A DNA stretch of 43,593 bases, taken from assembly GCA_902782895.1 (NCBI GenBank), contig CACZPA010000178.1:1-43593 (forward strand), in the 5' to 3' direction. A program made the translations under genes and the position numbers. The notes beneath the pieces were generated by a model, which was given only the letters and a program-made list of their open reading frames with translations, was not told the origin of the DNA and did no database searches. Origin of the DNA: an uncultured Eubacteriales bacterium. GTDB taxonomy: Bacteria; Bacillota; Clostridia; Lachnospirales; Bianqueaceae. Shown here piece after piece: positions 3,829-24,103 of the stretch. Position 1 is the first letter of the stretch. Every line of letters starts with the position of its first letter.

Positions 3829-5943
3829 ATGGAAGCATACAAAGACGAAGCTCTTTCCTTTGAGACAAGAGCGCTGGATTTGCTGAATCGCATGACTCTT
3901 GAGGAAAAACTAAGCCAGATGACATTTGAATCCAAGGCGATTGAGAGACTCGGCGTACCGGATTATAACTGGTGGAACGAAGCGCTGCACGGTGTCGCAA
4001 GAGCGGGCGTATCCACGATGTTTCCGCAGGCCATCGGACTTGCGGCAATATTTGACGACAAGTTTCTGAAAAAAGTGGCGGACGTCATTTCGACGGAAGG
4101 ACGCGCCAAGTACAAAGCCTATCAGGAAGAGGGCGATCATTCGATCTATAAGGGCCTGACCTTCTGGTCACCGAACGTCAATATCTTCCGTGATCCGCGT
4201 TGGGGACGGGGACAGGAGACCTACGGAGAGGATCCGTACCTGACATCCCGCCTGGGAGTCGCTTTCGTAGAAGGCCTGCAGGGCGACGATCCGAAGTATC
4301 TGAAGGCCGCGGCCTGTGCCAAGCATTATGCGGTACACAGCGGACCGGAAGCGATCCGCCATGAATTCGACGCACAGGCAACGCCCAAGGACATGATGGA
4401 GACCTATCTTCCGGCCTTTGAGGCTTGCGTTAAGGAAGCGAAAGTCGAAGCGGTCATGGGCGCCTATAACCGGACGAACGGCGAACCCTGCTGCGGCAGC
4501 CAGGAGCTGCTCGTCAAGATCCTGCGCGGCAAATGGGGCTTCGCGGGACATGTGGTTTCCGACTGCTGGGCAATCAATGATTTCCACGCGCATCATCATG
4601 TGACCGATACGGCTCCGGAATCCGCTGCTCTGGCGCTGAAGGCCGGCTGTGACGTGAATTGCGGAGTGACTTACATTTACCTGAAGGAAGCGCTCGAAGA
4701 GGGACTGATTACAGAAGAGGATATCGACAAGAGCCTGCTGCGCCTGTTGATCACACGTATGAAGCTCGGCATGTTCGATGATCCGTCCCATGTACCGTAC
4801 GCTCAGATTCCTGTGACGGCTAATAATACCAAAGAGCATAAAGCTCTCAATCTGGACGCTGCCCGCAAGAGCCTTGTATTGCTGAAAAACGCGGACAATG
4901 CGTTGCCCCTTTATCCGGAGAACCTGCGCCAGATCGCCGTTATCGGACCGAACGCCAACAGCCGTCTGGCTCTGATGGGCAATTATTTCGGCGACGCGGA
5001 CCGCTATACCACGGTTCTGGAAGGCATCCAGGACGCGCTCGAAGGGACGGATGTTCAGGTCGTCTATTCGGAAGGCTGCAAAGTGACGGACCGTCATAAG
5101 GCTGCCGAGGATCAGTATATCTATGAGGCGACAGGCCTTGTGAAACGCTCGGATGTGACGGTTCTCGTGCTTGGACTTGACGAGACGCTGGAGGGCGAAG
5201 AGCACCAGGACGGTTCCGGCGATAAGGCGGATCTGCATTATCCGGAGATCCAGGAGAAGCTTTTTGATGCCGTTATCGAGGCCGCGGCCGGTAAACCTGT
5301 CATTCTGATCAGCATGACCGGAAGTGCGATGGATCTGAATAAAGCAACCGAGAAGTGCGCCGCGATCGTGCAGGCCTGGTATCCGGGCTCTCGCGGAGGA
5401 GAGGCGGTTGCGGATCTGCTTTTCGGCAAGTTCAGCCCGTCCGGACATCTGCCGGTGACCTTCTACCGTACACTGGAGGAACTGCCGGAATTCACGGATT
5501 ATCATATGGAGGGCAGGACCTATCGCTACATGAAGAACGAAGCGCTGTATCCGTTCGGATTCGGCCTTTCCTACAGCCATTTCGCCTACAGTCCGGTCAG
5601 TTTTGAACGCAAGGACGATCAGGTAATCGTAACCGTGTCTGTGCAGAATACAGGCAAGATGGATGCCGACGAAATCGTCCAGCTCTATACGATCCACAAG
5701 AGTCCGGTGCTTTCGTCGCCGAACTGTTCGCTGCGCCGTTTTGAGCGCGTCAGCCTTGCGTCGGGCGAGAGCAGGAATATTACCTTTATGCTTGACAGAG
5801 CTGATCTCGAAATGATCGACAATGACGGTGAAAGAGTCCTCGAATCCGGTCTCTATACGGTCACTGTCGGAGGAAGCCAGCCAGACCGCCGCAGCGAAGA
5901 GCTGACGGGAAGTCCGGTCGTCCGCTGGGACTTCGAACTCTGA
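3829..5943 (+). CDS. Glycoside hydrolase family 3 (beta-xylosidase/beta-glucosidase type)
   Basis: Start moved to the ATG at 3829 (RBS GGGAGG at 3817-3822); the track ORF start at 3739 lies inside tRNA-Val. GH3 motifs SPNVNIFRDPRWGRGQETYGEDP and the nucleophile region KWGFAGHVVSDCWA are present. The C-terminal Fn3-like region contains PSGHLPVTFY. Confidence 0.9.
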   Translation: MEAYKDEALSFETRALDLLNRMTLEEKLSQMTFESKAIERLGVPDYNWWNEALHGVARAGVSTMFPQAIGLAAIFDDKFLKKVADVISTEGRAKYKAYQEEGDHSIYKGLTFWSPNVNIFRDPRWGRGQETYGEDPYLTSRLGVAFVEGLQGDDPKYLKAAACAKHYAVHSGPEAIRHEFDAQATPKDMMETYLPAFEACVKEAKVEAVMGAYNRTNGEPCCGSQELLVKILRGKWGFAGHVVSDCWAINDFHAHHHVTDTAPESAALALKAGCDVNCGVTYIYLKEALEEGLITEEDIDKSLLRLLITRMKLGMFDDPSHVPYAQIPVTANNTKEHKALNLDAARKSLVLLKNADNALPLYPENLRQIAVIGPNANSRLALMGNYFGDADRYTTVLEGIQDALEGTDVQVVYSEGCKVTDRHKAAEDQYIYEATGLVKRSDVTVLVLGLDETLEGEEHQDGSGDKADLHYPEIQEKLFDAVIEAAAGKPVILISMTGSAMDLNKATEKCAAIVQAWYPGSRGGEAVADLLFGKFSPSGHLPVTFYRTLEELPEFTDYHMEGRTYRYMKNEALYPFGFGLSYSHFAYSPVSFERKDDQVIVTVSVQNTGKMDADEIVQLYTIHKSPVLSSPNCSLRRFERVSLASGESRNITFMLDRADLEMIDNDGERVLESGLYTVTVGGSQPDRRSEELTGSPVVRWDFEL

Positions 5944-5950
5944 TATAAAA

Positions 5951-6601
5951 ATGATTACCGCATCCGGTATGGCATTGGGACTGTACTGCGCGCTTTCCGT
6001 ATTTGAGTGCTGTCAGGCGGAAAGACACAGCTCCTTCCATTTCGTTAAAACCTTATTGATGCCGGTTCTGACAGCTTTTTATCTGCTGACTTCCCGCCAG
6101 CTCGGGAAGCCGGTGTTCCCGTTTGCAGTATTGGCGCTTGTTTTCGGCTGGGCAGGGGATGTGCTGCTCCTTGGCAAAGGGGACAGATTCTTCCTGTCCG
6201 GCCTTATCAGCTTCCTGTTGGGACATGTTTTCTATGCAATCCTGTTTGTGACGCAGATTGCGCACGGGATGACGCCTGTTTACGCCTGGCTGATGATCGC
6301 GGGTTTCATGATTTATGCCGCGATTGTCGTCCGTTTCCTGATGCCGCATGTCGGAAGTGCGATGCGGATACCGGTCATCGCATATCTTGGCATCATTCTG
6401 CTGATGAATGTCGGTGCAGCATTGCGGGCGGGATCCGTTGCGCTCGTGTCATCCGTCCTGGTGTCGGCAGGAGCGGTGTTTTTCATGATATCCGATACGA
6501 TACTGGCGTTCTCGGTCTTCGGAGGACGCAAGGACCGCGGCGTGATGGAAACGTATACGGCAGCGCAGCTTCTGATCATTACGGGACTGTTATTTGTTTA
6601 A
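5951..6601 (+). CDS. YhhN-family integral membrane protein (lysoplasmalogenase family)
   Basis: Polytopic membrane protein of 216 aa with YhhN-like signatures (GWAGDVLLL, FFMISDTILAF). It starts 8 nt after the GH3 stop. Confidence 0.7.
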   Translation: MITASGMALGLYCALSVFECCQAERHSSFHFVKTLLMPVLTAFYLLTSRQLGKPVFPFAVLALVFGWAGDVLLLGKGDRFFLSGLISFLLGHVFYAILFVTQIAHGMTPVYAWLMIAGFMIYAAIVVRFLMPHVGSAMRIPVIAYLGIILLMNVGAALRAGSVALVSSVLVSAGAVFFMISDTILAFSVFGGRKDRGVMETYTAAQLLIITGLLFV

Positions 6602-6620
6602 CATTATTTCTCTTATATAC

Positions 6621-6649
6621 TTGATTTTTTATTGCAGATACGATAAAAT
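6621..6649 (+). promoter_or_regulatory. Candidate promoter of the gap operon (TTGATT-17-TAAAAT)
   Basis: TTGATT at 6621-6626, a 17-nt spacer, and TAAAAT at 6644-6649 in an AT-rich intergenic region. Confidence 0.4.
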
Positions 6650-6700
6650 ATTTTAAGATGTGGTTCGCTGTGCGCAGCCCGCATGGCAGAAAGGAAGAAC

Positions 6701-7693
6701 ATGGCCAGAATAGCGATTAACGGGTTTGGACGGATCGGAAGGAACGCTTTTAAGATCGGCCTTGAGAAAGGCCTTGATATTGTTGCGGTCAATGATCTGA
6801 CCGATGCCCATACGCTTGCGCATCTTCTGAAATATGATTCCTGTTTTGGCAAGTACTCCGGCGCGGTAGAAGTCCGCGGGACGGATCTTGCCGTTAACGG
6901 CAGACCGATCCGTATTCTTGCCGAGAGAGATCCCGCGAACCTTCCCTGGAAGGAAATGGGGATCGATATCGTGATTGAGTCGACGGGTCTTTTTGCGTCT
7001 GCGGATAAGGCAAAGGCGCATTTGGACGCCGGCGCGCGCAGGGTCATCATTTCCTGCCCGGCCAAGGGTACGAAGTCTTTCGTGATGGGCGTCAACCAGC
7101 AGATGTTTGATCCGGAGACGGATTATGTCATCGATAACGCGTCCTGCACGACAAACTGCCTGAGCCCGATCGTTAAGGTTCTGCAGGATCATTTCGGGAT
7201 CCGTAAGGGCATGATGACGACGGTCCATTCGTACACCAATGACCAGAAGATCCTCGATCTGCCGCATAAAGATCTGCGCAGAGCAAGAGCGGGAGCGCTT
7301 TCCATGATTCCGACGACGACGGGCGCGGCACAGGCTGTGGCAAAAGTCATTCCGGCAATGGAGGGCAGGCTTACCGGCATGTCCGTCCGGGTGCCCACGC
7401 CGACGGTCAGTCTGGTGGATTTTGTCGCGGAGCTTGAGCGCAACGTGACCGTACAGGAGATCAACAGCACGTTCAAGAGCGAAGCGGACGACCACATCCT
7501 CGGATACAGTGAGGAGCCGCTTGTTTCGATCGATTACAAGCAGGATTCGCGTTCCTGCATCATCGACGCGCTGTCCACACTGGTTACCGGCGGCAACATG
7601 GTTAAGGTTGTCGGATGGTATGATAATGAATGGATGTATTCGAACCGGATCGTGGATCTGGCGAGATACGTCGCGGAGCGCTGCGGCTACTAA
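6701..7693 (+). CDS. gap: Glyceraldehyde-3-phosphate dehydrogenase, type I
   Basis: The internal ATG at 6701 is preferred (RBS GAAAGGAAG, then [15 protein letters not shown]); the track start is 6683. The catalytic motif SCTTNCL and the C-terminal WYDNEW are present. Confidence 0.95.
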
Positions 7694-20080: not shown

Positions 20081-20626
20081 ATGAAAAAGAACGTTACGAT
20101 TTACCTGATCCTGACGGCGCTGTTTACAGCGCTTGTCGCCGTGTGCTCGCAGCTTAAAATCGATCTGCCGTTTGTGCCGATCAACCTTGCGCTTTTCGCG
20201 GTTCATCTGTCCGGCCTGCTGCTCGGACCGGTGTACGGAGGCTTAAGTATCCTGATTTACCTGCTGCTCGCGGCAGTCGGAGTCCCTGTCATGGCCGGCT
20301 TTAAGGGCGGAGTCGGGGTTCTTTTCGGCATGACGGGAGGATACGCGATCGGATACCTGTTCACCGCTGTGCTTGACGGAGTTGCGGTGAAGTATTTCGG
20401 GCAGAAAAAGGTTCTGCTTTTCCTTGCGATGTGCGTGTCCGTACTGGTCTGCTATCTGTTCGGCACGATCTGGTTCATGGTTCTAACGGGCAATACGGTC
20501 GGTTACAGTCTGCGGTATTGCGTACTGCCGTTCCTGCCGGGCGACGCGATCAAGATCCTGCTCGCGGAGTTCCTGTACTATCGGCTGCGCGGTCCGCTTG
20601 CGTCCATCCTGCAGAAGCATCTGTAA
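20081..20626 (+). CDS. bioY: Biotin transporter BioY (ECF S-component type)
   Basis: 181 aa with about 6 TM segments. BioY-like blocks are present (PFVPINLALFAVHLSGLLLGP, GVPVMAGFKGG, GGYAIGYLF). RBS AGGAGG. Confidence 0.85.
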   Translation: MKKNVTIYLILTALFTALVAVCSQLKIDLPFVPINLALFAVHLSGLLLGPVYGGLSILIYLLLAAVGVPVMAGFKGGVGVLFGMTGGYAIGYLFTAVLDGVAVKYFGQKKVLLFLAMCVSVLVCYLFGTIWFMVLTGNTVGYSLRYCVLPFLPGDAIKILLAEFLYYRLRGPLASILQKHL

Positions 20627-20665
20627 ACGATCTGTAAAAACCTGGACTCTGAAGCAAAAAAAGAG

Positions 20666-20695
20666 TTGACTTTTTCCTGCTTTAGAGACTATAAT
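20666..20695 (+). promoter_or_regulatory. Sigma-A-type promoter (TTGACT-18-TATAAT) driving the structured leader
   Basis: TTGACT at 20666-20671 and TATAAT at 20690-20695. Confidence 0.55.
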
Positions 20696-20702
20696 AAGAT
20701 GA

Positions 20703-20792
20703 TTTCAGGGGAGTAGTCAGCATCCAGATGCTGTTAAATCAACAACCGTCGCGGAGTTCCGCTTCTGGTTTAACATGAAAAGACAAGACCTG
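20703..20792 (+). promoter_or_regulatory. Riboswitch-like aptamer resembling the yybP-ykoY (Mn2+) class
   Basis: GGGGAGTAG at 20708-20716 and CAAGACC at 20784-20790 are bracketed by the closing helix CAGG (20706-20709) / CCTG (20789-20792). A hairpin CAGCAT-CCAG-ATGCTG lies at 20718-20733. A long hairpin TTAAATCA...TGGTTTAA (20734-20741/20767-20774) has an asymmetric internal loop and a GCGG-AGTT-CCGC cap (20751-20762). Confidence 0.55.
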
Positions 20793-20821
20793 TATCGTAT
20801 CGAGCGATACAGGTCTTTTTT
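20785..20821 (+). terminator. Intrinsic terminator (expression platform) overlapping the 3' strand of the aptamer closing helix
   Basis: AAGACCTGTATCG (20785-20797) pairs perfectly with CGATACAGGTCTT (20805-20817). It is followed by a T-run ending at 20821 and lies about 40 nt upstream of the CDS start. Confidence 0.85.
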
Positions 20822-20859
20822 GACCGTGTATCGCGAAACCAATCATAGTGGAGGGTATC

Positions 20860-21993
20860 ATGCAAATTTTATTAGAAGGTTTCTTGTCCGTAACCTGGCA
20901 GCAGATCGTAATGTATTGTGTCGGCGGACTACTGATCTGGCTTGCGATTAAGAAACAGTTGGAACCGGCGCTGCTTCTGCCGATGGGCTTCGGAGCGATC
21001 CTTGTCAATCTGCCGAATTCCGGTGTCCTGAATCAGATGATGGCCGGCAATATCGAAGCAGGCGGTATTATCGAATGGCTTTATAATGTAGGAATCGGAG
21101 CGGCGGAAGCCATGCCGATCCTGCTGTTCATTGGAATCGGAGCGATGATCGATTTCGGACCGCTGATCGAGAATCCGAAGATGTTCCTGTTCGGCGCGGC
21201 TGCGCAGTTCGGTATCTTCGCGGCGCTTTCTGTCGCGACGCTTCTCGGTTTTGACCTCAAGGACGCGGCGTCTATCGGAATCATCGGCGCAGCGGACGGT
21301 CCGACCTCCATCCTGGTTTCACAGGTTCTGGGTTCCAATTACATGGGCCCGATCGCGGTCGTCGCCTATTCGTACATGGCGTTGGTTCCGATCATTCAGC
21401 CCGCCGTCATCAAGATGATCACGACGAAGAAGGAACGGGCGATCCATATGGAGCATGTAGCATCCAAGCCGGTGAGCAGGACGACAAGAATCCTTTTCCC
21501 GATCATTGTTACGCTGATCGCGGGATTTGTCGCGCCGATGTCGATCGGTCTGGTAGGGTCGCTGATGTTCGGCAATCTGCTCAGAGAGTGCAAGGTCCTG
21601 GACAATCTGTCCGAGACCGCGCAGCACGAGTTCACGAATATCATCACATTGCTTCTCGGACTTACCGTCGCGTTCAATATGAAAGCGGCTCAGTTTGTAA
21701 CCTGGCAGACGCTCCTGATCATGCTGATCGGCCTCGCGGCGTTTGTATTCGATACGATTGGCGGCGTAATGTTCGCGAAGCTGCTGAATCTCTTCAGCCG
21801 TAAGAAGATCAATCCGATGATCGGAGCTGCCGGCATATCCGCGTTCCCGATGTCAGCGCGTGTTGTAGAGAAGCTCGCGGTAGCAGAGGATAAGACCAAT
21901 CATCTTCTGATGGAAGCCGTCAGCGCGAATGTCTCCGGACAGATCGCTTCCGTCGTTGCCGGCGGTATGATTCTGCAGTTCTTCATGCATTGA
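20860..21993 (+). CDS. Sodium-ion-translocating decarboxylase beta subunit (OadB/GcdB/MmdB family)
   Basis: Start set to the ATG at 20860 (RBS GGAGGG at 20850-20855). There is extensive collinear similarity to OadB blocks: GAMIDFGPLIENPK, GAAAQFGIF, GIIGAADGPTS, AYSYMALVPIIQP, FGNLLRE, KINPMIGAAGISAFPMSARV. Confidence 0.9.
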   Translation: MQILLEGFLSVTWQQIVMYCVGGLLIWLAIKKQLEPALLLPMGFGAILVNLPNSGVLNQMMAGNIEAGGIIEWLYNVGIGAAEAMPILLFIGIGAMIDFGPLIENPKMFLFGAAAQFGIFAALSVATLLGFDLKDAASIGIIGAADGPTSILVSQVLGSNYMGPIAVVAYSYMALVPIIQPAVIKMITTKKERAIHMEHVASKPVSRTTRILFPIIVTLIAGFVAPMSIGLVGSLMFGNLLRECKVLDNLSETAQHEFTNIITLLLGLTVAFNMKAAQFVTWQTLLIMLIGLAAFVFDTIGGVMFAKLLNLFSRKKINPMIGAAGISAFPMSARVVEKLAVAEDKTNHLLMEAVSANVSGQIASVVAGGMILQFFMH

Positions 21994-22031: not shown

Positions 22032-22202
22032 ATGTTTTTACTTTCGACTTTTACGGATTCGTTGAATATTATGGGAACCGGGATGCTGGGGATCTTCTTC
22101 GTGCTTGGCGCGATCGCTCTTGCCATCTATGCCGTCTCCGCAATCGATCATAAAGCGCAGGCTAAAAAAGAGCAGGAGCAGCAGGCGGAAGAGAACAGCT
22201 GA
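22032..22202 (+). CDS. Small membrane protein, OadG-like decarboxylase gamma subunit (56 aa; below the ORF-track cutoff)
   Basis: ATG at 22032 with RBS AAAGGAG. Translation is MFLLSTFTDSLNIMGTGMLGIFFVLGAIALAIYAVSAIDHKAQAKKEQEQQAEENS. It has a single TM with a GMxxxF-type core and a charged tail, typical of the OAD_gamma family. Stop TGA at 22200-22202. Confidence 0.6.
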   Translation: MFLLSTFTDSLNIMGTGMLGIFFVLGAIALAIYAVSAIDHKAQAKKEQEQQAEENS

Positions 22203-22306: not shown

Positions 22307-22335
22307 TTGACAGAAATGCTTTTGTAGAGTATAAT
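22307..22335 (+). promoter_or_regulatory. Consensus sigma-A promoter of the tRNA array (TTGACA-17-TATAAT)
   Basis: TTGACA at 22307-22312 and TATAAT at 22330-22335. A leader hairpin GCAGACG...CGTCTGC lies directly before the first tRNA. Confidence 0.65.
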
Positions 22336-22376: not shown

Positions 22377-22448
22377 GGCCCCCTGGTCAAGCGGCTAAGA
22401 CGTCGCCCTCTCACGGCGAAAACGGGAGTTCGATTCTCCCGGGGGTCA
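22377..22448 (+). tRNA. tRNA-Glu (anticodon CTC)
   Basis: Acceptor GGCCCCC/GGGGGTC, D region GGTCAAGCGGCTAAGAC, anticodon arm TCGCC-CTCTCAC-GGCGA, T arm GGGAG-TTCGATT-CTCCC. Confidence 0.9.
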
Positions 22449-22454
22449 TTCTTG

Positions 22455-22528
22455 GGGCCTTTAGCTCAGTTGGTCAGAGCAGCCGGCTCATAACCGGTCG
22501 GTCCCGGGTTCGAGTCCCTGAGGGCCCA
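22455..22528 (+). tRNA. tRNA with CAT anticodon, Ile2 (lysidine)-like rather than elongator or initiator Met
   Basis: Acceptor GGGCCTT/AGGGCCC and anticodon arm GCCGG-CTCATAA-CCGGT. The overall sequence resembles ileX-type tRNAs (CTCATAA loop). The T stem CCGGG/CCCTG has one C-U mismatch. Assignment as Ile2 rather than Met is an inference. Confidence 0.8.
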
Positions 22529-22529
22529 T

Positions 22530-22603
<74 letters not shown>

Positions 22604-22647
22604 CTGTTCTCCTAGCGGAGTGATCCAGAGAACAGATACGGTTGTTT

Positions 22648-22721
22648 GGCGGAGTAGCTCAGCTGGCGAGAGCACGCGGTTCATACCCGCGGTGTCGGCA
22701 GTTCAAATCTGTCCTCCGCTA
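22648..22721 (+). tRNA. tRNA-Met (anticodon CAT), elongator type
   Basis: Acceptor GGCGGAG/CTCCGCT, anticodon arm CGCGG-TTCATAC-CCGCG, T arm GGCAG-TTCAAAT-CTGTC. Confidence 0.85.
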
Positions 22722-22725
22722 CTGT

Positions 22726-22797
22726 GCGCGAGTGGCTCAGGGGTAGAGCATCGCCTTGCCAAGGCGAGGGTCGCGGGTCCGAATCCCGTCTCGCGCT
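22726..22797 (+). tRNA. tRNA-Gly (anticodon GCC) with an atypical T-loop (TCCGAAT)
   Basis: Acceptor GCGCGAG/CTCGCGC, anticodon arm TCGCC-TTGCCAA-GGCGA, T arm GCGGG-TCCGAAT-CCCGT. Position 55 reads C instead of the near-universal U. Confidence 0.8.
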
Positions 22798-22806
22798 TAT
22801 CTCACG

Positions 22807-22837
22807 CGGTGCCGCGTTATTGCAGCACCGTTTTTTT
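22807..22837 (+). terminator. Hairpin plus T7 run after the tRNA array
   Basis: CGGTGC (22807-22812) pairs with GCACCG (22825-22830) and is followed by TTTTTTT (22831-22837). The next base begins an ATG. Confidence 0.55.
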
Positions 22838-24103
22838 ATGACAGAAAGGATGAATGCATTGCCGGATAACTATAAAGAGTTATTATCAGCCCTCGACGCG
22901 TTGATCGACGTGACGGAGCCGGTACAGACAGGTCTGTCGAATGCTTCTGCATTGATTTGGCAGAATCTGTCGTCGCTGAACTGGGCCGGATTCTACCTGG
23001 TCCGCGGCGGAGAGCTTGCTCTCGGACCTTTTCAGGGCAAACCGGCCTGTACGATGATCGGTAAAGGCAAGGGCGTCTGTGGTACGGCTTGGCAGGAGGA
23101 TCAGACGATCCGGGTAGAGGATGTTCATGCTTTTCCCGGGCATATAGCCTGTGATGCCGCGTCCCGATCCGAGATCGTGATCCCGCTGCATGACTCTAAC
23201 GGCCGTGTGATGGGAGTTCTGGATCTGGACAGCTTCCTGCCGGCGCGTTTTCTTCCGGAGGATCAGGAAGGGTTAGAAGCAGCGGCAAAGCTGTTAGAGC
23301 ATAAACTGTTTAATTTTCAGGATGCAGCCTTCTCGCAGAATTCCGATGCGCCTGTCGGGATTGTCGATTCCGGGCTGGGCGGCTTAAGCGTTCTGAAAGA
23401 AATGATCCGTCTGATGCCGGGAGAGGATTTCCTGTATCGCGGTGATTCGCTGCACGCGCCGTACGGGACCAAGACACCGGAGGATGTGCAGCGGTACACT
23501 TTCGCAAACGTTTCCTATCTTATGGAACGCGGGATCAAGGCGCTTGTCGTCGCATGCAATACGGCAACGAGCGTCTGCATCAGCCGCTTAAGAGAACAAT
23601 ACAGCGATATGCCCGTGATCGGTGTTGAGCCGGCGCTTAAACCGGCCGTTCTGCATTCGGAGGGCGGTAGAGTTCTGGTTATGGCGACGCCGATGACCCT
23701 GCAGGAGCATAAATTCGCGGAGCTGATGGACCGGTACGGTCGTGAAGCTACGATCGTCAAGGTCCCCAGTCAGGGATTGATGGAGTATGTGGAGCGGGGG
23801 ATTCTGGAAGGGCAGGAGCTTGACGGTTTTCTTGCCGATCTGCTGAATCCGTATCTTCCGGCCGATTCGATCGTCCTTGGATGTACGCATTATCCCTTCC
23901 TCGCGGACGCGATCCGCAAAGCCGCGGGAGGGTCCGTACAGATTTACGATGGCAGCGAAGGGACCGCAAGGGAGCTCAGAAGGAAGCTGGAAGAGAATCG
24001 TATTCTGCGTGAATCGGCTCATCAGGGGAAGGTAGAGATCCTCAACAGCAAAGATTCAGCGGAGCTTGCCGCACTGGCGGAAAGGCTTTTGTATGGCTGT
24101 TGA
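22838..24103 (+). CDS. murI: Fusion protein: N-terminal GAF-domain free methionine-(R)-sulfoxide reductase (fRMsr/MsrC-like) + C-terminal glutamate racemase
   Basis: The track ORF (22724) starts inside tRNA-Gly. The first plausible starts are the ATGs at 22838 and 22850. The N-terminal half matches E. coli YebR/MsrC blocks (NWAGFYL, GPFQGKPAC, GKGVCGTA, VEDVHAFPGHIACDAAS, EIVIPL). The C-terminal half carries MurI motifs (VDSGLGGLSV, VVACNTAT, VLGCTHYPF). It is a single uninterrupted frame. Confidence 0.85.
   Translation: MTERMNALPDNYKELLSALDALIDVTEPVQTGLSNASALIWQNLSSLNWAGFYLVRGGELALGPFQGKPACTMIGKGKGVCGTAWQEDQTIRVEDVHAFPGHIACDAASRSEIVIPLHDSNGRVMGVLDLDSFLPARFLPEDQEGLEAAAKLLEHKLFNFQDAAFSQNSDAPVGIVDSGLGGLSVLKEMIRLMPGEDFLYRGDSLHAPYGTKTPEDVQRYTFANVSYLMERGIKALVVACNTATSVCISRLREQYSDMPVIGVEPALKPAVLHSEGGRVLVMATPMTLQEHKFAELMDRYGREATIVKVPSQGLMEYVERGILEGQELDGFLADLLNPYLPADSIVLGCTHYPFLADAIRKAAGGSVQIYDGSEGTARELRRKLEENRILRESAHQGKVEILNSKDSAELAALAERLLYGC

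Follow-up and report, generated by a model that had tools for sequence, protein, structure and literature searches.

What does the leader in front of a gene for a Na+-translocating decarboxylase subunit sense, and how would it control that gene? The question is raised by a 43,593-nucleotide (nt) stretch of DNA from an uncultured Eubacteriales bacterium (GenBank assembly GCA_902782895.1, contig CACZPA010000178.1; the whole stretch is referred to below as the window), in which the bioY-oadB intergenic region contains a near-consensus promoter followed by a leader of ~120 nt (20703-20822). A first-pass annotation of the sequence had proposed that this leader is a variant of the yybP-ykoY (Mn2+) riboswitch. 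Our analysis indicates that it is very probably a yybP-ykoY (Mn2+) riboswitch that acts in cis and turns its gene on through control of transcription termination, belonging to a three-way-junction subtype in which the sequence UNAAA replaces helix P4. The analysis establishes the anatomy of the leader, its family membership by covariance models, the covariation of its helices, the conservation of the terminator overlap and the recurrence of oadB as cargo. The parts of the leader are given below, with reference to an alignment of oadB leaders (A3) and an alignment of 80 leaders from named genomes, taken from among the matches listed in a pattern scan (A5).

20666-20695, + strand: sigma-70-type promoter, TTGACT (20666-20671), 18-nt spacer, TATAAT (20690-20695), with 11/12 matches in a consensus scan
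20706-20709, + strand: 5' strand of the switch helix P1.1, CAGG, partner CCUG at 20789-20792 (constrained fold)
20708-20716, + strand: hallmark block GGGGAGUAG, comprising G20708-G20709 plus the L1 5' strand
20710-20715, + strand: L1 5' strand GGAGUA, invariant across aligned leaders
20716-20718, + strand: P1.2 5' strand GUC, partner GAC at 20782-20784 (constrained fold)
20719-20732, + strand: P2 hairpin AGCAU-CCAG-AUGCU, which folds and in which 5/5 pairs covary
20733-20774, + strand: long P3 hairpin with asymmetric internal loop ACAACCGUC/UUC and GCGG-AGUU-CCGC tip
20733-20741, + strand: P3.1 5' strand GUUAAAUCA, partner UGGUUUAAC at 20766-20774 (constrained fold)
C20740-G20767, + strand: C-G pair, the A-minor receptor, invariant in 36/36 leaders of A3 and 80/80 of A5 (among the matches listed)
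20742-20750, + strand: L3 bulge ACAACCGUC, opposite UUC at 20763-20765
20751-20762, + strand: P3.2 hairpin GCGG-AGUU-CCGC, which folds and whose helix covaries
20776-20780, + strand: UGAAA joiner in place of P4, with U.AAA conserved in the family alignment
20782-20784, 20785-20788 and 20789-20792, + strand: 3' strands of P1.2 (GAC), L1 (AAGA) and P1.1 (CCUG)
20784-20790, + strand: hallmark block CAAGACC
20785-20821, + strand: intrinsic terminator, 13-bp stem (20785-20797/20805-20817), 7-nt loop and U-run to 20821, hairpin energy -19.0 kcal/mol

The structural description in the first-pass annotation is borne out by this map: the promoter, both hallmark blocks with their flanking CAGG/CCUG strands, the short and the long hairpin, the asymmetric loop and tip of the latter, and the 13-base-pair (bp) terminator overlapping the 3' closing strand are all present. 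Its estimate of about 9 nt between the long hairpin and CAAGACC is also correct, the stretch reading A-UGAAA-A-GAC (20775-20784). P4 is absent, as it had suspected, but this is not a novelty, since the three-way form with UNAAA is known from the mgtA riboswitch (PMC6649816). Transcription would start at ~20702, and this position, 4-5 nt 5' of P1.1, would be typical of riboswitch leaders. The window contains the motif pair GGGAGTAG-N50-80-AAGACC a single time, none being expected from 100 shuffles, and the folding of the leader gives a z of -3.6. A 58-residue (aa) open reading frame (ORF) at 20775-20951 and a weak Thr_leader match (18.6 bits) were treated as spurious.

The two loops that form the metal site in this family can be placed at single-base level. 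The L1 strands (GGGAGUAG on the 5' side, (A/G)AGA(C) on the 3' side; AAGAC, 20785-20789, in the window) are invariant in 120+ aligned leaders, with one exception in AGAC of the 3' side, the oadB leader of locus L032. Window residues G20710/G20711 align with G16/G17 of the Streptococcus pneumoniae mgtA riboswitch, and A20712 with its A-minor adenosine A18 (roles from PMC6649816), whose contact in the family is received by the C-G pair (PMC6649816). The register of L3 is fixed because this invariant pair aligns with C20740-G20767; UCA/UGG therefore closes P3.1 and ACA opens L3, as in clostridial mntP leaders. On this alignment C20743/A20744 would be the equivalents of the metal-contacting C49/A50 in S. 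pneumoniae and A41 in Lactococcus lactis, and in the family alignments at least 97% of the leaders keep the adenosine in the third position of the bulge. An alternative register with a streptococcal-like 'UCA' start (P3.1 = GUUAAA/UUUAAC, L3 = UCAACAA) is contradicted by the invariant C-G pair. In the L032 leader (639-734) AGAC of the L1 3' strand has become AGGC with the terminator intact, and this leader may be a decayed or retuned copy.

Family membership was judged with a covariance model, R1 (91 positions, 28 base pairs). Its seed consists of 14 oadB leaders that do not belong to the subgroup of the window and was checked against constrained folds of each sequence, the window and its close relatives being left out. 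A MAFFT alignment of 21 leaders (A1) was dropped for structure, P2 and P3 being out of register in it, and the 14-sequence seed was used instead. R1 matches the window leader over its full length at 42.3 bits (E=7e-9 to 9e-8), as a single copy in an unfiltered scan of the window (E=7e-9). At Rfam gathering thresholds there is no match in the leader, and the window together with 40 homologous loci yielded only tRNAs and unrelated riboswitches. The Rfam comparison proposed in the first-pass annotation gave no match to its named candidates, RF00080, DUF1646 and nhaA-I, at E≤10, but a different family, RF02617 (SSRC10, 'Streptococcus sRNA 10'), matches the window over model positions 1-113, terminator included, at a sub-threshold 45.4 bits (E=1.3e-7). 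RF00080 'Manganese' gives weak matches of 24-25 bits to a relative of the window (L024) and to an mntP leader (L083), and misses the clostridial mntP- and P-type ATPase-linked leaders of the same subtype (at most 25 bits). Its failure on the window is therefore a limit of model coverage, because leaders in front of mntP and ATPase genes are missed as well. Among the sequence and structure features compared, only the four-way junction and the Rfam gathering scores set the RNA apart from the yybP-ykoY family; by all the others it belongs there.

The helices are supported by homologous leaders, whose collection and covariation analysis the first-pass annotation had called for. Scanning metagenome contigs with the window OadB protein yielded 80 loci, which are 62-96% identical to it. 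R1 gives 48 significant full-length matches, one in the window and the others in 47 of these loci; each lies directly upstream of oadB and on the strand of that gene, so that ~60% of the closest OadB homologues have the leader; several of the R1-negative metagenomic loci lack upstream DNA. In A3, 93.5% of cells are standard pairs versus 71% in shuffles, 26/28 pairs have changes on both sides, and the covariation score is 0.564 versus 0.19 in shuffles (0/500 reach it) and 0.07-0.13 with slid partners. In A5 (80 genomic leaders, among the matches listed), 91.3% are paired, 23/28 pairs show double changes, and the score is 0.591 versus 0.22 in shuffles (0/500 reach it) and 0.05-0.11 in slid controls. 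Both scores are to be read with the caveat that the alignments are fitted to the structure of R1. Covariation extends over more than 100 homologous leaders and includes the switch helix, with double changes at 7/7 P1.1 pairs in A3 and 6/7 in A5; P1.2 appears across oadB leaders as GCC/GGC, GCU/AGC, GUC/GAC, GCA/UGC and GCG/CGC. The relative L001 (96% identical) differs from the window in the P2 loop, the P3.2 tip (hairpin kept), the terminator loop and one terminator-stem pair, U-A to U-G.

Several homologous loci depart from the window in other respects. The oadB leader of L062 (2759-2870) keeps a P4 hairpin, GGUAUAGAACGGUACC, so that within one gene context, that of oadB, it connects the three-way form with the four-way form. 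Loci L004-L018, a human-gut group with 71% OadB identity, have a much longer P2, giving aptamers of 135-138 nt that lie ~180 nt upstream of oadB, and the spacer holds a called ORF of 47-78 aa that is probably spurious. The human-gut group also has ZMP/ZTP riboswitches, a few kb downstream (L004 5971-6113, L010 6763-6905, L020 6153-6235), and a lysine riboswitch lies just downstream of oadB in L036 (4479-4648) and L039 (4481-4650), two loci without the Mn leader.

How the aptamer would act on oadB follows from the position of the terminator. Aptamer and terminator are mutually exclusive, because the 5' arm of the terminator contains the 3' strands of L1 and P1.1. A stable hairpin and U-run starting inside these strands is found in 32/35 non-redundant oadB leaders and in 75/80 genomic leaders (the latter among the matches listed). 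The overlap matches that of characterised transcriptional Mn2+ riboswitches, in which metal-stabilised P1.1 blocks termination, and ON logic is on this ground inferred with good support. The earlier assignment of a yybP-ykoY-type aptamer with ON logic thus stands, L1, the L3 C-A, the C-G receptor and P1.1 all being present, the helices covarying and the overlap being conserved. RNA polymerase would initiate at ~20702, and at little ligand the 13-bp terminator would form, sequestering AAGA and CCUG, and transcription would end before oadB. Abundant divalent metal would bridge the phosphate-rich L1 (GGAGUA/AAGA) and L3 (ACA...) loops, so that the P1-P2 leg docks on P3 and P1.1 (CAGG/CCUG) is stabilised, which would block the terminator and allow read-through into oadB-oadG. 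By analogy with the family Mn2+ is the most likely ligand, and Ca2+ is a possible one, as in the streptococcal relative.

That relative is the S. pneumoniae mgtA yybP-ykoY riboswitch, which forms a three-way junction with an invariant UNAAA instead of P4 followed by a terminator, binds Mn2+ and Ca2+, and is activated for read-through by Mn2+ (PMC6649816). The RNA behind the best Rfam match, SSRC10, is a ~113-nt Streptococcus pyogenes transcript detected by Northern blot and RACE (rapid cDNA-end amplification) directly upstream of a 'putative calcium transporter' (PMC3675131), and because of this position we infer that SSRC10 represents, in its terminated form, the riboswitch leader of the mgtA-type Mn2+/Ca2+ P-type ATPase of streptococci. 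The mgtA/SSRC10 leaders share with the window the replacement of P4 by UNAAA, the L1 strands (GGGAGUAG...AGAC), the C-G receptor, the L3 C-A, a terminator 5' arm that begins at the L1-3'/P1.1-3' strand, and, presumably, the ON logic. They differ in their cargo, a PII-type ATPase where the window has oadB-oadG, in their hosts, which are streptococci and not a clostridial gut organism, and in L3, where GCG/CGC closes P3.1 and the bulge starts with UCA, in contrast to UCA/UGG, ACA and a 9x3 L3 in the window. Neither P2 nor P4 is indispensable in the family, the validated three-way members being mgtA without P4 and alx without P2 (PMC6649816, PMC12153347). The L. lactis yoaB, Escherichia coli mntP and Bacillus subtilis yybP/ykoY riboswitches (RF00080), in which Mn2+ activates the downstream gene (PMC12153347, PMC8632737), share the L1/L3 metal-site architecture and a P1.1 switch helix overlapping the expression platform. 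The four-way members of RF00080 have P4, whereas the window has only A-UGAAA-A between P3 and P1.2, and the known RF00080 cargo consists of Mn2+ exporters and TerC proteins, whereas that of the window is a decarboxylase subunit.

The subtype was then followed beyond oadB in named genomes with the pattern GGGAGTAGTC-N45-75-TNAAANGACRAGAC, whose fixed parts fall in L1, P1.2 and the joiner, with P2, P3 and L3 unconstrained. At least 120 matches were obtained, of which 80 loci (L081-L160) were analysed. Among the matches listed, the taxa are almost all Clostridia (Oscillospiraceae, Acutalibacteraceae, Christensenellaceae, Lachnospiraceae, Ruminococcus, Marasmitruncus), with a few Erysipelotrichaceae and Eggerthellaceae. 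R1, although trained on oadB leaders only, recognises 80/80 of these genomic leaders over their full length at 36-74 bits. The genes downstream, and the three forms in which the L3 bulge occurs, each with A at position 3 and the preceding C-G pair, are as follows; the counts apply to the 80 loci among the matches listed.

MntP: downstream of 29 of 80 loci
PII-type P-type ATPase: downstream of 14-15 of 80 loci
OAD_beta: downstream of 9 by first ORF and 12 by tblastn, of 80 loci
Na_Ca_ex: downstream of 7-8 of 80 loci
L3 type I: GCG then UCANNNC, the streptococcal/lactococcal form
L3 type II: (U/C)CA then ACANNNN, with ACAUACU in mntP leaders and ACAACCG... in the window
L3 type III: UCG then N(C/U)ANCAC, 8/8 preceding oadB (among the matches listed)

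In named clostridial genomes oadB thus follows 15% of this RNA subtype (among the matches listed). The clostridial mntP, ATPase and Na_Ca_ex leaders share with the window P1.2 (GUC/GAC), the joiner, L3 type II and the terminator overlap and are likewise unannotated by Rfam; only the downstream gene differs. One mntP locus, L147 (a Christensenellaceae metagenome-assembled genome), has a second Mn-riboswitch-like element at 5655-5744 (R1, 28 bits), ~1.4 kb downstream of its mntP riboswitch. This element has no terminator and is followed by an A-rich spacer, a ribosome-binding site and a 338-aa ORF (5781-6797) starting MLALDIFLLVLGLALLVEGADWFVDG that looks like a Na_Ca_ex exchanger, and it could represent a form of the switch that acts on translation.

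These neighbours bear directly on the strongest of the other explanations, that the fold is the same and the ligand has changed, the oadB-linked aptamers sensing Na+, Li+ or only Ca2+ instead of Mn2+. In its favour, a Na+ pump is what the leader precedes, some genes for oxaloacetate decarboxylase are known to be under Na+-I riboswitches (PMC9337991), so that Na+-responsive control of this kind does occur naturally, Ca2+ as well as Mn2+ is bound by the streptococcal relative (PMC6649816), and one lineage found only before oadB has the distinct bulge N(C/U)ANCAC (8/8, among the matches listed). However, the L3 type of the window (ACANNNN after UCA/UGG) is found upstream of mntP and P-type ATPase genes, and in the P-type ATPase leader L133 the P3.1/L3 sequence, GUUAAAUCAACAACCG, is identical to that of the window. 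Moreover, each of the three L3 types is represented among oadB leaders, the streptococcal/lactococcal UCANNNC being one of them, no change is seen in the L1 strands, in the C-G pair that serves as receptor or in the adenosine of L3, and neither DUF1646 nor nhaA-I matches 20620-20870. Type III was considered as an oadB-specific signature of specificity and rejected: its 8/8 leaders (among the matches listed) share one P3.1 sequence and form a single lineage, and they are therefore not independent evidence of a changed ligand. A changed ligand is thus an improbable reading, and should the oadB-only type III lineage have switched ligand, the same is unlikely for the window itself. Since leaders of this subtype are also found before mntP, P-type ATPase and Na_Ca_ex genes and the L133 loop is identical, the comparison favours the first of the two alternatives left by the first-pass annotation, a gene association of the Mn2+ regulon that would be undescribed, and disfavours the second, an altered or Na+-sensing aptamer.

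Secondly, the leader could be a trans-acting, SSRC10-like small RNA (sRNA) with its own promoter and terminator that is unrelated to the control of oadB. The best Rfam match is typed 'Gene; sRNA', SSRC10 was seen as a discrete ~113-nt transcript in S. pyogenes (PMC3675131), and the element does have its own promoter and a strong terminator; a terminated riboswitch leader would be expected to give the same Northern-blot picture, however, and SSRC10 adjoins a P-type ATPase gene, the inferred orthologue of the riboswitch-controlled S. pneumoniae mgtA. In 128/128 loci (the genomic ones among the matches listed) the element lies on the same strand immediately upstream of a transporter or oadB gene, with a terminator that competes with P1.1, and an independent sRNA is accordingly very unlikely. 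Still less probable, to the point of being negligible, is a Na+-I (DUF1646) or Li+ (nhaA-I) riboswitch. DUF1646 RNAs occasionally precede oxaloacetate decarboxylase genes (PMC9337991), and the Na+-I riboswitch, as the window leader would, switches transcription on in competition with a terminator. It is described, however, with two extended elements only, P1 and P2, and a monovalent ligand, and not as a multi-helix junction (PMC9337991; this comparison is by description). The permissive Rfam scan of 20620-20870 (E≤10) gave no match to DUF1646 (Na+) or nhaA-I (Li+), and neither reached gathering level in 40 homologous loci. Finally, although the hallmark blocks comprise no more than 9 and 7 nt and the curated Rfam thresholds are unreached, a chance resemblance, in which an ordinary promoter, two hairpins and a terminator (e.g. 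that of bioY) carry two short motifs, is effectively refuted by compensatory changes in every helix across more than 100 homologues, by two covariance models at E about 1e-7 or below, by the recovery of the motif pair in 0/100 shuffles, and by the promoter lying downstream of the bioY stop codon, which assigns the terminator to a new transcript.

Several points nevertheless weigh against a Mn2+-responsive yybP-ykoY riboswitch at this locus. RF00080 (Mn2+) has no match on 20620-20870 even at E≤10, and RF02617, at 45.4 bits, falls short of its gathering score, which is 56 (that of RF00080 is 45 bits). In the L3 of the window 9 nt stand opposite 3 nt, where a clean bulge would have 7 nt, P1.1 has just 4 bp, and oadB-oadG is not a known Mn2+ exporter. 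The ligand and the direction of regulation are carried over from characterised members of the family, none of them clostridial, and are to that extent presumed for this leader. In addition, a weak promoter-like site (20820-20849, TTGACC-18-CATAGT, 9/12) lies between the terminator and the oadB start and, if active, would allow some riboswitch-independent oadB expression.

The unit that the riboswitch would control, and the gene before it, are the following.

20081-20626: bioY, biotin transporter (Pfam BioY 1e-35), immediately upstream of the riboswitch-oadB unit
20850-20855, + strand: ribosome-binding site of oadB, GGAGGG
20860-21993, + strand: oadB, Na+-translocating decarboxylase beta subunit, 377 aa, ATG start, Pfam OAD_beta E=1e-149
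22032-22202, + strand: oadG-like small membrane peptide, 56 aa, Pfam OAD_gamma E=4e-7

The Pfam matches agree with the OadB/OadG-like cargo named in the first-pass annotation. The window OadB aligns with Salmonella OadB (PDB 6IVA/6IWW) at E=5e-89 and, in the alignment to 6IVA, keeps the ADGPT, AYSYMALVP, KINP and G(I)SA...ARV motifs. From what is known of Klebsiella and Salmonella OadB, we take the Asp, Tyr, Asn and Ser/Arg of these motifs to serve Na+ translocation. A neofunctionalised OadB was considered as the primary explanation and finds no support, all Na+-pump motifs being kept. A look-up of the exact window OadB protein found no record. The oadG-like ORF is probably co-transcribed with oadB, and small transmembrane ORFs of 45-57 aa lie 3' of oadB in many homologous loci. 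Genes for a carboxyltransferase alpha subunit or biotin carrier are found neither within the 43-kb window nor adjoining oadB in the 80 metagenomic loci; the regulated unit is therefore an orphan beta-gamma pair, and the genes for its partners presumably lie in another part of the genome.

The window is otherwise a housekeeping region (gap-pgk-tpi, tkt, glpA-like genes, secDF, recJ, relA, tig, lon). The adjacency of bioY, seen only in the window and in the 96%-identical L001, is suggestive in that it fits the biotin dependence of the decarboxylase holoenzyme, and the interval from bioY to the leader promoter showed no terminator. Directly after oadG, a 12/12 promoter (22307-22335) drives a cluster of five tRNAs (22377-22797). 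An ORF at 22724-24103 with GAF and Asp/Glu racemase domains begins inside the last tRNA, and its true start is for this reason placed further downstream.

What a Mn2+ or Ca2+ signal would achieve by raising OadB-OadG can be considered in three ways. We prefer the possibility that Na+ extrusion energises Na+-coupled Mn2+/Ca2+ efflux, because Na_Ca_ex exchangers stand under the same riboswitch subtype in related taxa. Direct transport of divalent cations by OadBG is possible but unsupported. Matching of the membrane subunit to a metal-dependent alpha subunit is a weak proposal, because the alpha gene is not co-regulated in the window. Whether through Na_Ca_ex or by itself moving divalent metal, a part for the OadB-OadG pair in the Mn2+/Ca2+ stress response of gut Clostridia is thus a tentative suggestion, and one that we hold with considerably more doubt than the assignment of the RNA.

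The RNA class and its three-way form are known, and what appears undescribed is the oadB cargo, which is new and recurrent. No decarboxylase cargo is mentioned in the accessible literature, where the regulon is portrayed as one of exporters or transporters, although a listing in the supplementary tables of the 2015 discovery papers is possible. For annotation, the result points to a blind spot in Rfam: the clostridial three-way-junction subtype is missed by RF00080, and a separate entry, RF02617, lists its streptococcal version as an 'sRNA'. With RF00080 and RF02617 merged or re-seeded, many Mn2+ riboswitches of gut metagenomes that now go unannotated would be found. In the window, the bioY-oadB intergenic region becomes a defined regulatory element with parts assigned at base level. 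For the family, a non-exporter, bioenergetic gene is added to the Mn2+ riboswitch regulon, and recurrently so. This provides a lead on how anaerobes that depend on a Na+ gradient cope with Mn2+/Ca2+ excess and, if the proposed role of OadB-OadG is true, it would reveal an unrecognised coupling of manganese homeostasis with sodium bioenergetics.

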